Source: Sphyrna mokarran (taxonomy: Eukaryota). Taken from it: a stretch of 64,000 nucleotides of DNA. The notes below the pieces were generated by a model. The model saw only the letters and a program-made list of their open reading frames with translations. It ran no database searches and was not told the DNA's origin. Below are positions 10,123-64,000 of the stretch, one piece after another; position 1 is the first letter of the stretch; every line of letters starts with the position of its first letter. The stretch spans positions 1 through 64,000 of the forward strand of contig JAGIQG010000048.1 in the NCBI GenBank assembly GCA_024679065.1. Reading direction: 5' to 3'. A program made the translations under genes and the position numbers.

Positions 10123-11019
10123 ACAGCAGCATCTCCTGTAGCTGATTTGCACCGTGTTTTATTGTACAGTATAAGCTGATTTCTGTTATTAAAGAGTTCC
10201 TCTCGTAGTTGCCAATGAGTGGAGAAATGATCATTTCATAAGCTGCTTGAATGGAAGGTAAAACATTTATTCTTGTGACATTGTGCAATGTACAATGTGT
10301 GTTCCTGATACCAGCGAATGTTGGACAGCCGGTGGCCAATAGAATGAGCTGCAATGATTTGGATGCTGAAGGAGAACTTTAATGATCTTCGTGTGCATTC
10401 CAATTCATTCACTTCTCAGTCAAAACTCAATTTAATGTTATGTTTCTCTGTCAATTAATTATATAATTCTCAGGAATTCATATTATTTTCAGAGGGCTGT
10501 CTTCCAGATTGGGACAGTTTGAAAAAAAATACAAGGAAAATACTGTGTGAGCTGTTTCTCATCTTCAAACCTGAATCCACACTGGAAATACAATCACTTT
10601 GTATATTCCACACATTTAGTTCCAGAAATCGACGCTATTTCTTCGGATAAATTGTGTTTTATTATCCCAATGTGGCAGAGACACGGAATTGTTGCAAAAT
10701 TGTCTAATTTCCCCAAATGTGATTCCATCATTTTCCGATTTGTTTTCTTGTTGGGGGCGGGGTAATAAAATCACCGTATTTACAACGGAATTGGTCATTT
10801 TAATAAATAAATGATGAATTGTAATATCACCATCAGGAATAATCCATGAACAGATTCAGCCAAACAAATAGCCCGACACAGATCAAATGTCCATTTGAGT
10901 ATGAATTCTTGTCAATCTGGGGAGTCAATTCTATCTGGGGGTGTGGAAGGTGGATCCAGGCGCCGCCTCCAGCAGGGAATCAACAGGCGGTGCCCGGAAA
11001 GCCGTCCCCTTCTACCGGC

Positions 11020-11029
11020 TATTTAAATA
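11020..11029 (+). promoter_or_regulatory. VH-A promoter TATA-like box
   Basis: TATTTAAATA ~100 bp upstream of the leader ATG in a GC-rich patch; identical in copy B. Confidence 0.6.
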
Positions 11030-11118
11030 CCGCTCACCGGCACCGCAATCCAACAGCCCGGGAGCTGGTTTGTTCACTGAGTTCCTGACCCAACCATTTC
11101 CCCCAAATCACCAGAAAG

Positions 11119-11164
11119 ATGAGGTCGGCGATTTGTCTCAGTTTGTTGCTGACTTTCTTATCCG
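11119..11164 (+). CDS. IGHV: IgH leader exon, cluster A (MRSAICLSLLLTFLS-G)
   Basis: ATG at 11119, hydrophobic signal peptide, phase-1 donor GTGAGT at 11165. Confidence 0.93.
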
Positions 11165-11289
11165 GTGAGTAGTTTATTTTCATTGTCCAAGACTCTCATT
11201 TTACTGTCTCAATGTTAGTCTATCTCTGGAATGCTCCAGAATCATTCCACCAGGATTAACCCTTAGAATTTTTGATTTTTTATTTACAG

Positions 11290-11594
11290 GTGTCCAGTCG
11301 GAGGTTGTGTTGACCCAGAAAGAGGCAGAGACCGGCCGTCCCGAAGCCTCCCTGAAACTGACCTGTAAAACCAGCGGCTTTAACCTTGGCAGCGATTACA
11401 TGGCTTGGATCCGGCAGGTTCCCGGACAGGGACTGGAGTGGCTGGTTAGCTACTACACTTCATCCAACATCCATTACGCCCCCGTAATTCAGGGCCGATT
11501 TACGGCGTCCAAAGACACTTCAAACAACATCTTCTCTTTGGAGATGACGCGTCTAAGTATTGAAGACACCGCCATCTATTACTGTGCAGGAGAC
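11290..11594 (+). CDS. IGHV: VH gene segment, cluster A (germline, unrearranged)
   Basis: tttacag acceptor; [46 protein letters not shown]; open frame; followed by RSS. Confidence 0.97.
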
Positions 11595-11633
11595 CACAGC
11601 GAGAGGAACCAGGGCTGGAACTGTACAAGGACA
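11595..11633 (+). other. 23-RSS of VH-A
   Basis: CACAGCG-23 bp-ACAAGGACA. Confidence 0.9.
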
Positions 11634-11959
11634 ACTGCAGAGGGAATTCAGCATCTTCCTCCGTAACCTGAAGGTCAGCGTCTGTTTCAAATGCAATATG
11701 ATCGACTGTGGTCAGAACCAAACTATAATCGCCTTTAAATAAAGTAACACAAAACATTTCACAGTAAAACTTCACAAACTCACGGATATAACTGCTGAGC
11801 TTTTCACCGACTTTATATTCATTGGAGTGTCAGCAGGAACGACACTCCAATATGTTAGTCTTCTTAATATTTCTGACAGACTGTTTTATAGAAACATTTC
11901 GCATTAGAGCAAAACTAATGGTCCATTTGAAGTGAATATTGAACAGTAGGACTGAATGC

Positions 11960-12042
11960 AGTTTTTGTATGGCTGTGTGTCACTGTGATACTATAGCAGT
12001 GGGTCACTGTGCTGTGAAAAACGACATCCTCATACAAAAACC
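11960..12042 (+). other. IGHD: DH1 segment (11988-12004) with 12- and 22-bp RSSs, cluster A
   Basis: AGTTTTTGT-12-CACTGTG [ATACTATAGCAGTGGGT] CACTGTG-22-ACAAAAACC. Confidence 0.92.
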
Positions 12043-12329
12043 TCAGAAGGACATTGCTTACAATGCCACTGCCGAATGCCAGACTAAATGAGGGTTCAAC
12101 AAAATAATGGGTAGAAACAGCATTGTTTTTTGTTTTAAGATGTAAAATGCTTCAATCTTATTGTTGTTGTTTTGCACGCTGAATGTGCACAGATAGTGTA
12201 AAAGTTTCTAATTCCCCTTTATCAATATCATGACCAGTAAAAATTGAAATATCTCACTCTTACCGAGCTGGAAACAGGCTTTTGAAATTGCAGTGAAATT
12301 AATTATCTGCATTTTACAGTTTCTGTCTC

Positions 12330-12398
12330 AGTATTTGTCATGCTGTGTCTCACTGTGATAGCTGGTATAGCACAGCAGTTACTGTCAATACAAAAACC
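12330..12398 (+). other. IGHD: DH2 segment (12358-12370) with 12/12 RSSs, cluster A
   Basis: AGTATTTGT-12-CACTGTG [ATAGCTGGTATAG] CACAGCA-12-ACAAAAACC. Confidence 0.92.
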
Positions 12399-12723
12399 CC
12401 TCAGCACTGATTGATTGAAGCTGGATCAGTGTCACTTTTAAATTCCAGCTTTAATCAAAGGACAGTATTATTTATATCCAGCACAGACCACCTGAGAAAA
12501 ATAAACATGGAAAATCTTGATAATTACTCAATTATTAATTGGTGTTTTCGATAACACGTTCATGAATTACTCTGAAATATAAAACATTAGGGTCATTTAT
12601 GAATATCGAATGGTATCCAGAAATCCAAAATTATAATTTACTGAACATTAATTGACTTTGTTTTTCCTTGGGTTTGTGGATATTTAAAATAATGGTGCTT
12701 GCGTGTCTATTTAGTGCAGAGAC

Positions 12724-12810
12724 GGTTATTATATGACACAGCCCAGGGAATGTGACACTGTGACGACTTCGATTACTGGGGACAAGGGACCATGGTGACG
12801 GTGACTTCAG
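12724..12810 (+). CDS. IGHJ: JH segment (12763-12810; DFDYWGQGTMVTVTS) with 23-RSS, cluster A
   Basis: GGTTATTAT-23-CACTGTG, WGQG motif, donor GTAAGA at 12811. Confidence 0.96.
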
Positions 12811-61944: not shown

Positions 61945-62031
61945 CTGAAGTCACCGTCACCATGGTCCCTTGTCCCCAGTAATCGAAGTAGTCACAGTGT
62001 CACATTCCCTGGGCTGTGTCATACAATAACC
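61945..62031 (-). CDS. IGHJ: JH segment (61992-61945; YFDYWGQGTMVTVTS) with 23-RSS, cluster B
   Basis: GGTTATTGT-23-CACTGTG; donor GTAAGA. Confidence 0.96.
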
Positions 62032-62356
62032 GTCTCTGCACTAAATAGACACGCAAGCACCATTATTTTAAATATCCACAAACCCAAGGAAAAACAAAGT
62101 CATTTAATGTTCAGTAAATTATAATTTTGGATTTCTGGATACCATTTGATATTTATAAATGACCCTAATGTTTTATATTTCACAGTAATTCATGAACGTG
62201 TTATCGAAAACACCAATTAATAATTGAGTAATTATCAAGATTTTCCATGTTTATTTTTCTCAGGTGGTCTGTGCTGGATATAAATAATACTGTCCTGTGA
62301 TTAAAGCTGGAATTTAAAAGTGACACTGATCCAGCTTCAATCAATCAGTGCTGAGG

Positions 62357-62425
62357 GGGTTTTGTATTGACAGTAACTGCTGTGCTATTCCAGCTATCAC
62401 AGTGAGACACAGCATGACAAATACT
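62357..62425 (-). other. IGHD: DH2 segment (62397-62385) with 12/12 RSSs, cluster B
   Basis: AGTATTTGT-12-CACTGTG [ATAGCTGGAATAG] CACAGCA-12-ACAAAACCC. Confidence 0.92.
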
Positions 62426-62717
62426 GAGACAGACTGTTCACTGTAAAATGCAGATAATTAATTTCACTGCAATTTCAAAAGCCTGTTTCCAGCTCGGTAA
62501 GAGTGAGATATTTCAATTTTTACTGGTCATGATATTGATAAAGGGGAATTAGAAACTTTTACAGTATCTGTGCACATTCAGCGTGCAAAACAACAACAAT
62601 AAGATTGAAGCATTTTACATCTTAAAACAAAAAACAATGCTGTTTCTACCCATTATTTTGTTGAACCCTCATTTAGTCTGGCATTCGGCAGTGGCATTGT
62701 AAGCAATGTCCTTCTGA

Positions 62718-62800
62718 GGTTTTTGTATGAGGATGTCGTTTTTCACAGCACAGTGACCCACTGCTGTAGTATCACAGTGACACACAGCCATACAAAAACT
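62718..62800 (-). other. IGHD: DH1 segment (62772-62756) with 12/22 RSSs, cluster B
   Basis: AGTTTTTGT-12-CACTGTG [ATACTACAGCAGTGGGT] CACTGTG-22-ACAAAAACC. Confidence 0.92.
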
Positions 62801-63126
62801 GCATTCAGTCCTACTGTTCAATATTCACTTCAAATGGACCATTAGTTTTGCTCTAATGCGAAATGTTTCTATAACACAATCTCTCAGAAATATTAAGAAG
62901 ACGAACATATTGGAGTGTCGTTCCTGCTGACACTCCAATGAATATAAAGTCGGTGAAAAGCTCACCAGTTATATCCGTGAGTTTGTGAAGTTTTACTGTG
63001 AAACGTTTTGTGTTACTTTATTTAAAGGCGATTATAGTTTGGTTCTGACCACAGTCGATCATATTGCATTTGAAGCAGACGATGACCTTCAGGTTACGGA
63101 GGAAGATGCTGAATTCCCTCTGCAGT

Positions 63127-63165
63127 TGTCCTTGTACAGTTCCAGCCCTGGTTCCTCTCGCTGTG
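63127..63165 (-). other. 23-RSS of VH-B
   Basis: CACAGCG-23-ACAAGGACA. Confidence 0.9.
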
Positions 63166-63470
63166 GTCTCTTGCACAGTAATAGATGGCGGTGTCTTCAA
63201 TACTTAGACGCGCCATCTCCAAAGAGAAGATGTTGTTTGAAGTGTCTTTGGACGCCGTAAATCGGCCCTGAATTACGGGGGCGTACGCGTTACTGGATGA
63301 ACTTTTGTAGCTAACCAGCCACTCCAGTCCCTGTCCGGGAACCTGCCGGATCCAGCCCATCCAATAGCTGCCAAGGTTAAAGCCGCTGGTTTTACAGGTC
63401 AGTTTCAGGGAGGCTCCGGGACGGCCGGTCTCTGCCTCTTTCTGGGTCAACACAACCTCCGACTGGACAC
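63166..63470 (-). CDS. IGHV: VH gene segment, cluster B (germline, unrearranged)
   Basis: [34 protein letters not shown]; open frame. Confidence 0.97.
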
Positions 63471-63595
63471 CTGTAAATAAAAAATCAAAAATTCTAAGGG
63501 TTAATCCTGGTGGAATGATTCTGGAGCATTCCAGAGATAGACTAACATTGAGACAGTAAAATGAGAGTCTTGGACAATGAAAATAAACTACTCAC

Positions 63596-63641
63596 CGGAT
63601 AAGAAAGTCAGCAACAAACTGAGACAAATCGCCGACCTCAT
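63596..63641 (-). CDS. IGHV: IgH leader exon, cluster B
   Basis: Identical to leader A. Confidence 0.93.
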
Positions 63642-63730
63642 CTTTCTGGTGATTTGGGGGAAATGGTTGTGTCAGGAACTCAGTGAACAAACCAGCTCCC
63701 GGGCTGTTGGATTGCGGTGCCGGTGAGCGG

Positions 63731-63740
63731 TATTTAAATA
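63731..63740 (-). promoter_or_regulatory. VH-B promoter TATA-like box
   Basis: TATTTAAATA, mirror of 11020-11029. Confidence 0.6.
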
Positions 63741-64000
63741 GCCGGTAGAAGGGGACGGCTTTCCGGGCACCGCCTGTTGATTCCCGGCTGGAGGCGGCGC
63801 CTGGATCCACCTTCCACACCCCCAGATAGAATGGACTCCCCAGATTGACAAGAATTCATACTCAAATGGACATTTGATCTGTGTCGGGCTATTTGTTTGG
63901 CTGAATCTGTTCATGGATTATTCCTGATGGTGATATTACAATTCATCATTTATTTATTAAAATGACCAATTCCGTTGTAAATACGGTGATTTTATTACCC

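Follow-up and report, generated by a model that had tools for sequence, protein, structure and literature searches.

Our analysis of the window, the whole 64-kb stretch of DNA considered here, shows two facing IgM clusters, A and B (K1 and K2 of the array described below), each with a leader exon (L), a VH exon followed by a 23-RSS, D1 (12/22 RSS), D2 (12/12 RSS), a JH preceded by a 23-RSS, Cmu1-4, a secretory tail, TM1 and TM2. Cluster A lies on the + strand, with its leader exon at 11119-11164, VH exon at 11290-11594 (the nonamer of the following 23-RSS is non-consensus, a feature common to 8/8 array copies), D1 at 11988-12004, D2 at 12358-12370 and JH at 12763-12810. A J-C intron of 9,239 bp (12811..22049), with a C-rich simple-repeat tract near 17-19 kb, leads to Cmu1 (22050-22349), Cmu2 (22561-22875), Cmu3 (24277-24585), Cmu4 with the secretory tail (25636-26027), TM1 (29727-29854) and TM2 (29995-30003). 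Cluster B lies on the - strand and runs from its leader (63596-63641) through VH (63166-63470), D1 (62756-62772), D2 (62385-62397), JH (61945-61992), a J-C intron of 8,720 bp (53225..61944), Cmu1 (52928-53224), Cmu2 (about 52401-52715), Cmu3 (50693-51001) and Cmu4 with the secretory tail (49255-49646) to TM1 (45480-45607) and TM2 (45331-45339). The introns are thus of the approximately 9-kb size given by the first-pass annotation, and the 3-nt Cmu1 indel that it described is real on exon comparison, B having the shorter exon. In both clusters L-VH-D1-D2-JH lie inside about 2 kb, as is typical of elasmobranch IgM clusters; Pfam V-set and C1-set domains are present (four C1-set Cmu exons per cluster), and CH1 matches are to IgM of sharks, the best match of the A CH1 being to Triakis IgM, at 75%.

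The reading frames of A and B are open, the splice sites are GT-AG, and AATAAA sites were found. The earlier description of the clusters as intact holds at the ORF level, but private or rare changes affect the Cmu2 acceptor, RSS nonamers and Cmu4. The GAG acceptor of A Cmu2 is common only to K6, AAG being present in 6/8 array copies and in 16/16 older copies examined; the JH nonamer of A and the D2 nonamer of B each have one private change, and B Cmu4 has two substitutions at sites invariant in matched older copies (L 15/15, P 13/13). Of about 438 residues, 17 distinguish Cmu-A from Cmu-B; the N-glycan sites (7) and Cys residues (14) are the same in both. Reads were mapped from leader to Cmu4 (runs X2, RNA-like, and X23 were used; of the runs with a small word share only X3 was mapped, and no weight was placed on it). 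At the family level, run X2, which is guessed to be RNA, contains V(D)J joins bearing N bases, together with splices of J-CH1, CH1-CH2, CH2-CH3 and CH3-CH4.

The two clusters converge, as the first-pass annotation had it, with their TM2 exons 15,344 bp apart (it gave about 15 kb), and its near-identical inverted arms are 96-97% identical by self-BLAST: 10760-19943 matches 64000-54872 inverted (96.2%), 21141-31701 matches 54139-43607 inverted (96.7%), and in the inner arms 31648-34361 matches 38706-36206 inverted. The arms extend beyond the window, position 4721 pairing with 70039 of the contig; the left arm, which is cluster A and its flanks (4721..34361, +), pairs with contig 70039 through 36206, minus the extra block of arm B. 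The proposed palindrome of >50 kb is therefore real but imperfect, since arm B carries 4.9 kb of extra DNA (38706..43607, -) and a 1.85-kb core (34361..36206), absent from the other three tail-to-tail pairs of the array, is unmatched. By self-BLAST and pair comparison, the 4.9-kb block is found only in "long" tails (K2, K4, K5 and K8); the inner arm of A (31648..34361, +) is of the "short" type, as in K3, K6 and K7, and that of B lies at 36206..38706 (-).

A 436-kb contig begins with the window and carries eight IgM clusters (K1-K8) in strict +/- alternation, an arrangement expected in 2/256 cases if orientation were random. Of the palindromes that they form, four are tail-to-tail and three head-to-head, at a divergence of about 1-2%, with inverted blocks of up to about 50 kb (97-98% identity) and a cluster pitch of about 50 kb with one larger gap. 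Each tail-to-tail pair has one short and one long tail, and one pair, K5/K6, lies the other way round from the remaining three. Long copies >90% identical and of mosaic ancestry make this a segmental-duplication array with non-allelic recombination. The A/B pair had been presented as special; this finds no support, because it is one of four in an eight-copy array and because convergent neighbours occur commonly, both in this genome and in those of other elasmobranchs. The older IgM clusters on C994 have 8 convergent, 6 divergent and 9 tandem adjacencies (23 of <250 kb), and in older convergent pairs there the partner is the nearest C relative in 1/5 and the nearest V relative in 0/5. Great white shark IgM entries are in opposite orientation at 7/8 adjacencies (PMC12227049, table S1), and stingray IgM clusters are also of mixed orientation by published coordinates. 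We found no literature report of alternating or tail-to-tail shark IgM arrays, a weak negative with most subscription papers outside its coverage.

It is improbable that the palindrome is an assembly artefact built from fold-back reads or mis-joined haplotypes. The contig is unplaced, both of its ends stop within array sequence, and K6 and K7 are just 0.98% apart with a centre 99.85% identical, all of which would suit such an error. However, arms that differ by about 2%, with kilobase indels and a unique core, cannot be produced by fold-back, and the short/long pair structure is seen four times. Read depth in another individual also fits eight copies better than four mis-joined ones, the ratio of Cmu4-bin to family-bin depth in run X23 being 2.8 (at least 2.5 is expected for eight copies and at least 3.9 for four). 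That depth is about twice nominal for eight copies, a value that may reflect a collapsed assembly, in which case some of the mosaicism described next could be artefact.

The array copies are germline mosaics, and V and C regions have been reassorted in the germline of this shark IgM family. For the recombination, split-rank, doubleton and minor-allele counts, two blocks that are hypervariable and align poorly were first masked. Recombination among the copies is evident (PHI-like p about 0.001), and the V-side and C-side trees are mutually rejected (AU 5.5e-7 and 1.6e-51). In an unmasked copy comparison the VH protein is identical in K3, K6 and K7. The K6 Cmu is 2 amino acids from that of K1 and 18 from that of K3. 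Among the 35 possible 4/4 splits, the one by short or long tail comes first on the VDJ side, in the C region and in the tail, and the strand split ranks 17-35. Inside the J-C intron the A/B lineage signal is lost (rank 11 of 35), the best split there being positional, K1-4 versus K5-8, and of 26 minor alleles in the 2.2 kb that directly follow JH, K1 and K2 have 7 in common (other pairs at most 3). These last two observations are post hoc hints of intron-focused exchange and speak against the explanation preferred below. On its V side K1 is not clearly A-type, which is what a past crossover between V and C would produce. V-side and C-side lineage markers are largely still coupled across the J-C intron, and no recombination hotspot was seen there by Rm (0.34 per site, versus 0.35-0.41 elsewhere).

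Arm-to-arm conversion, which the palindrome was thought to favour, finds no support, because in 4/4 blocks label permutation shows no excess closeness of tail-to-tail partners over random pairs (1.77% versus 1.73-1.76% for other classes, p 0.76; p 0.99, 0.78 and 0.79 in three further blocks). Such partners share 8, 3, 2 and 6 doubletons against a mean of 7.9, and in non-coding flanks the tail-to-tail pairing ranks 23 of 24 matchings; the arms are not closer to one another than to other paralogs, as those of a converting palindrome would be. Head-to-head neighbours share more (p 0.005 and 0.0095); their distance signal leans on K6/K7, and the head blocks are not significant (p 0.095 and 0.12).

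We put at about two in three the probability that A and B are simply two of eight young alternating IgM clusters, the outcome of pair-wise duplication and germline scrambling, which rearrange autonomously and would undergo inversion occasionally as a by-product of AID. Besides the intron hints, the V side of K1, the greater sharing between head-to-head neighbours and the read depth count against this explanation. The cluster anatomy, the alternation, the two tail types, the mosaic ancestry and, at the family level, the V(D)J joins and splices in the RNA-like run were observed directly. The array likely arose from an inverted A-B pair that was duplicated again and again, in an order that we infer, and gene conversion and unequal crossover in the germline likely scrambled the copies later. 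Each cluster probably rearranges alone, as in other sharks; AID breaks would now and then yield, as a by-product, an inversion that swaps the constant regions of facing clusters in somatic cells, as opposed to a reversible switch built into the locus. On present evidence the A/B pair is an ordinary amplification product and not a new device.

Any switch between clusters on opposite strands must be an inversion, and the first-pass annotation had the orientation right in proposing that a join between the A and B J-C introns inverts the middle with no DNA loss. Its inter-cluster RAG joining, of the V-A 23-RSS to the D1-B 12-RSS, would likewise be inversional (both RSSs read on the + strand), but it finds no support as a real route, such joining amounting to at most 1/97 in the nurse shark data of PMC2435157. 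It is unlikely, in our estimation, that inversional switching is a regular B-cell process in which end-joining of AID breaks just 3' of JH in two facing clusters leads to expression of VDJ-A with Cmu-B and vice versa, no DNA being lost. The required geometry is present, and 40 kb separate the intron midpoints, whereas the nurse shark loci described in PMC2435157 lie at least 120 kb from one another. Switching in sharks is two-way and AID-associated (review passages, PMC4279169), birds and reptiles are known to use inversional class switching, and inversional joining in mouse cells is promoted where transcription is opposite and the distance short, reaching 43-46% in some of the constructs in PMC13066422; the J-C intron hints given above point the same way. 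On the other hand, there is usually one productive cluster per cell (passages of PMC2435157), which may leave the partner intron untargeted by AID, and the gain from exchanging such similar Cmu regions would be small. Nor is there switch-like motif enrichment: the J-C intron is not an AGCT/WGCW-dense S region of the tetrapod type (AGCT 2.7 per kb versus 3.0 for the contig), and the octamer and strict CTCF core are absent or not enriched in the window.

A dedicated, reversible flip-flop through homologous crossover of the arms, accompanied by arm-to-arm conversion, is highly improbable. The inverted introns are about 98% identical, with seven perfect tracts of 160-346 bp, and the flipped K5/K6 pair might be taken for its trace; but K6 is A-type on both the V and C sides, so the flip is explained by inversion of the whole pair, not by a crossover within the intron. 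Recombination per site is no higher in the intron, and the V-side and C-side coupling over it leaves the earlier claim unsupported, as do partners that are not homogenised, the lack of a switch region and a Cmu difference of 17 residues.

In shark isotype switching (Zhu et al. 2012, as related in passages of PMC4279169, PMC4588147 and PMC5192425) a VDJ is expressed with the C region of another cluster, in both directions and without S regions, by a mechanism that the reviews call unresolved (PMC4279169); cluster orientation as its cause is not discussed in those review passages. The partners here are about 98% identical, so the putative swap would be one between sub-subclasses. With the order and orientation of eight distinguishable clusters mapped, the question becomes a matrix test, in which opposite-strand pairs can swap two ways by inversion and same-strand pairs in cis only one way by deletion; the array geometry offers a testable intrachromosomal route to two-way switching. 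It seems rather doubtful that orientation governs shark class switching, AID breaks 3' of JH joining facing clusters of alternating IgH arrays by loss-free, reversible inversion. If it did, an orientation rule would explain two-way, position-independent switching within one chromosome, inversion would be the ancestral form of class switch recombination, and the erasure of lineage signal within the J-C intron would echo it in the germline.

The AZFc/DAZ ampliconic palindromes of the primate Y also hold gene copies in inverted arms, with recombination among the copies; in the shark array the arms share about 98% identity, and facing arms show no preferential homogenisation. The inverted C-alpha of birds and reptiles and the engineered inverted CH of CH12F3 cells (PMC13066422, in whose main text the word "shark" does not occur) resemble the present case in that opposite transcription makes the productive join an inversion, but unlike the shark array they have S regions, I promoters and a translocon organization, and the isotype is changed. 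Teleost IgL clusters likewise have close, opposed segments that permit inversional inter-cluster V-J joining by RAG (passages of PMC5192425), whereas shark IgH joining is almost always intra-cluster. The nurse shark IgM minilocus, as described in PMC2435157, is like A and B in having a single VH, a pair of D segments and a single JH within 2 kb, one Cmu and an equal RSS pattern; its loci, however, are mostly of unknown linkage and widely spaced, whereas those described here are eight near-identical, closely pitched and alternating clusters.

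Self-BLAST of the window bore out the inverted arms that the first-pass annotation had described: an outer arm (10760–19943 against 64000–54872, 96.2% identity), a middle arm (21141–31701 against 54139–43607, 96.7% identity) and inner arms (31648–34361 against 38706–36206). On the contig the arms extend to positions 4721 and 70039, the latter past the window edge. They do not mirror each other perfectly: arm B carries an additional 4.9 kb, and the central 1.85-kb core is unique. The TM2 exons of the facing IgM clusters A (K1, + strand) and B (K2, − strand) are 15,344 bp apart, in agreement with the earlier estimate of about 15 kb. 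A 56-bp minisatellite is present in both inner arms (33408–33816, 7.3 copies; 36751–36991, 4.3 copies), where it adjoins the point at which the palindrome turns round. Judged by their motifs, broken reverse-transcriptase-like frames at 145–912 (minus strand) are typical of a LINE remnant.

The converging V-D-D-J-Cμ clusters are indeed complete. Each arm contains one leader, VH, D1, D2, JH, Cμ1–4, secretory tail, TM1 and TM2, with open frames, GT-AG splice sites, poly(A) signals, RSS spacers of 23, 12/22, 12/12 and 23, and matches to Pfam V-set and C1-set. The best CH1 match is Triakis scyllium IgM (75%), and the named matches among the 12 CH1 matches are shark Ig heavy chains. The Cμ2 acceptor of K1 (22550–22561) and K6 has one base missing and reads GAG (AAG in the other 22 copies examined), a JH-nonamer change is private to A and a D2-nonamer change to B, B also has two Cμ4 substitutions, both at conserved positions, and the V nonamer common to all eight copies on the contig is one base further from consensus than that of most older clusters. 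The VH exons (11290–11594 and 63166–63470) diverge more among copies than the adjoining spacers (K1/K2, 3.6% from leader to V versus 1.6% in neighbouring spacers), and their amino acid changes cluster in CDR1 and CDR2, a pattern which suggests diversifying selection.

The pair is real and well formed, and it is best read (probability about 0.68) as belonging to a young array of inverted duplications and not as a stand-alone pair. The contig is 436,136 bp long, with the window as its bases 1–64,000, and carries eight clusters, K1–K8. These show strict +,− alternation of strand, forming four tail-to-tail and three head-to-head pairs, and all eight are ORF-intact. The tail-to-tail TM2 gaps are 15.3, 15.4, 15.2 and 74.1 kb, and both contig ends break off inside array sequence, the right one exactly at the turn-round of K2's head arm. 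Nested duplications of 12–24 kb, some inverted and some direct, have widened the K7/K8 gap (contig positions 335000–392400) to 74 kb. The K6/K7 head-to-head palindrome (231224–332583) extends for 50 kb at 98.2% identity with a centre that is 99.85% identical, and is either the youngest duplication or the likeliest spot for an allelic mis-join.

That an assembly artefact made the palindrome is improbable, since a fold-back cannot yield arms that differ by 2%, carry indels of kilobase size and flank a unique core. In the whole-genome read run X23, whose species label is the same as that of the best-matching run, 38 of the 40 listed variant letters are found among the eight assembled copies. Its mean depth is 11.6x in family-specific bins and 32.6x in the Cμ4 bin, a ratio of 2.8. 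When tiling was simulated on the assembled copies (8 from the array plus 19/28 other Cμ4 copies), the ratio expected was 2.5 or more with eight copies and 3.9 or more with four. In absolute terms the depth is that of about 16 nominal copies of the array family, twice the 8 assembled; this excess may reflect assembly collapse or copy-number variation. A second run, X2, which we guess to be RNA, contains three V(D)J joins that include N bases, along with J-CH1, CH1-CH2, CH2-CH3 and CH3-CH4 splices, and the 3-nt-deleted Cμ1 (K2/K5 type) accounts for all contig depth listed at that site.

Each tail-to-tail pair joins one short tail (K1, K3, K6, K7) to one long tail (K2, K4, K5, K8), with the order reversed in K5/K6. 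Of the 35 possible 4/4 splits, this one ranks best for the VDJ side, C region and tail, over which the strand split ranks 17–35, so the duplicated unit was likely the A–B pair, with K5/K6 a flip of a whole pair. Running against the main reading and hinting at exchange focused on the J-C intron, the lineage split falls to rank 11 of 35 inside that intron; there the facing partners' matching ranks 7 of 24 (in non-coding flanks, 23 of 24), and K1 and K2 have 7 of 26 minor alleles in common over the 2.2 kb that follow JH (other pairs at most 3), all post hoc observations that are not significant by matching rank. The copies are mosaic: the further apart any of the 444 informative sites lie, the more often they are incompatible (p about 0.001), trees from the V side and the C side are mutually rejected, and K3, K6 and K7 have one VH protein in common while the K6 Cμ is 2 residues from K1 and 18 from K3. 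The expected preference for arm-to-arm conversion did not materialize; facing partners diverge by 1.77%, versus 1.73% for other opposite-strand and 1.76% for same-strand pairs (p 0.76; in three further blocks p 0.99, 0.78 and 0.79). K1 is nearest to K6 and K2 to K3, and head-to-head neighbours share more, partly via K6/K7.

The first-pass annotation was right about the inversion geometry: switching between opposite-strand partners here, should it occur, would proceed by inversion. Shark switch junctions reportedly (Zhu, 2012) lie just 3' of JH, some having been read as trans-chromosomal. Inversion would more probably proceed by end-joining of AID breaks than by homologous crossover. The inversional route is proposed because of the geometry, the AID-associated, two-way switching without S regions in sharks (excerpts of PMC4279169, PMC4588147), and the inversional switching that some birds and reptiles need and that opposite transcription and short distance raise in mouse cells (excerpt of PMC13066422). 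Regular somatic inversional switching between facing clusters is possible, if doubtful, and a dedicated homologous flip-flop is very unlikely. The J-C intron has no excess of AGCT or WGCW (2.7 and 15.5 per kb versus 3.0 and 16.0 for the contig), and among the eight copies its recombination per site is not raised over other regions. The functional gain from a Cμ swap would be small, since Cμ-A and Cμ-B differ at only 17 positions and both keep the same seven N-glycan sites and 14 cysteines. Inter-cluster RAG joining would likewise be inversional, as foreseen, but among 97 nurse shark rearrangements at most one was of this kind (excerpt of PMC2435157).

The older IgM clusters on another contig, C994 (over the regions retrieved, identity to K1 is 75–85% in VH and 93–97% in Cμ4), have 23 adjacencies of <250 kb, of which 8 are convergent, 6 divergent and 9 tandem, as counted from 30 loci compiled by hand, some known from V or Cμ4 alone. 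A second young family on C994 consists of three minus-strand clusters, spaced by about 0.3 and 0.8 Mb, that do not differ in their VH exons and diverge by <1% in Cμ. Another C994 cluster has L-V-D-D-J with no Cμ exon in the 20 kb fetched and faces an intact cluster about 14 kb off. The literature searched yielded no description of such an alternating array, a weak indication that none has been published; the word "orientation" does not occur in the main text of PMC12227049. Its table S1 has nine entries for great white IgM, and of the 8 adjacencies between them 7 are in opposite orientation, three of these being convergent despite separations of 0.7–2 Mb; in stingray, blocks of IgNAR and IgW converge too. 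Since C994, great white and stingray all have opposed neighbours, mixed cluster orientation is ordinary in elasmobranchs, and what is unusual here is how tightly and strictly the near-identical copies alternate.
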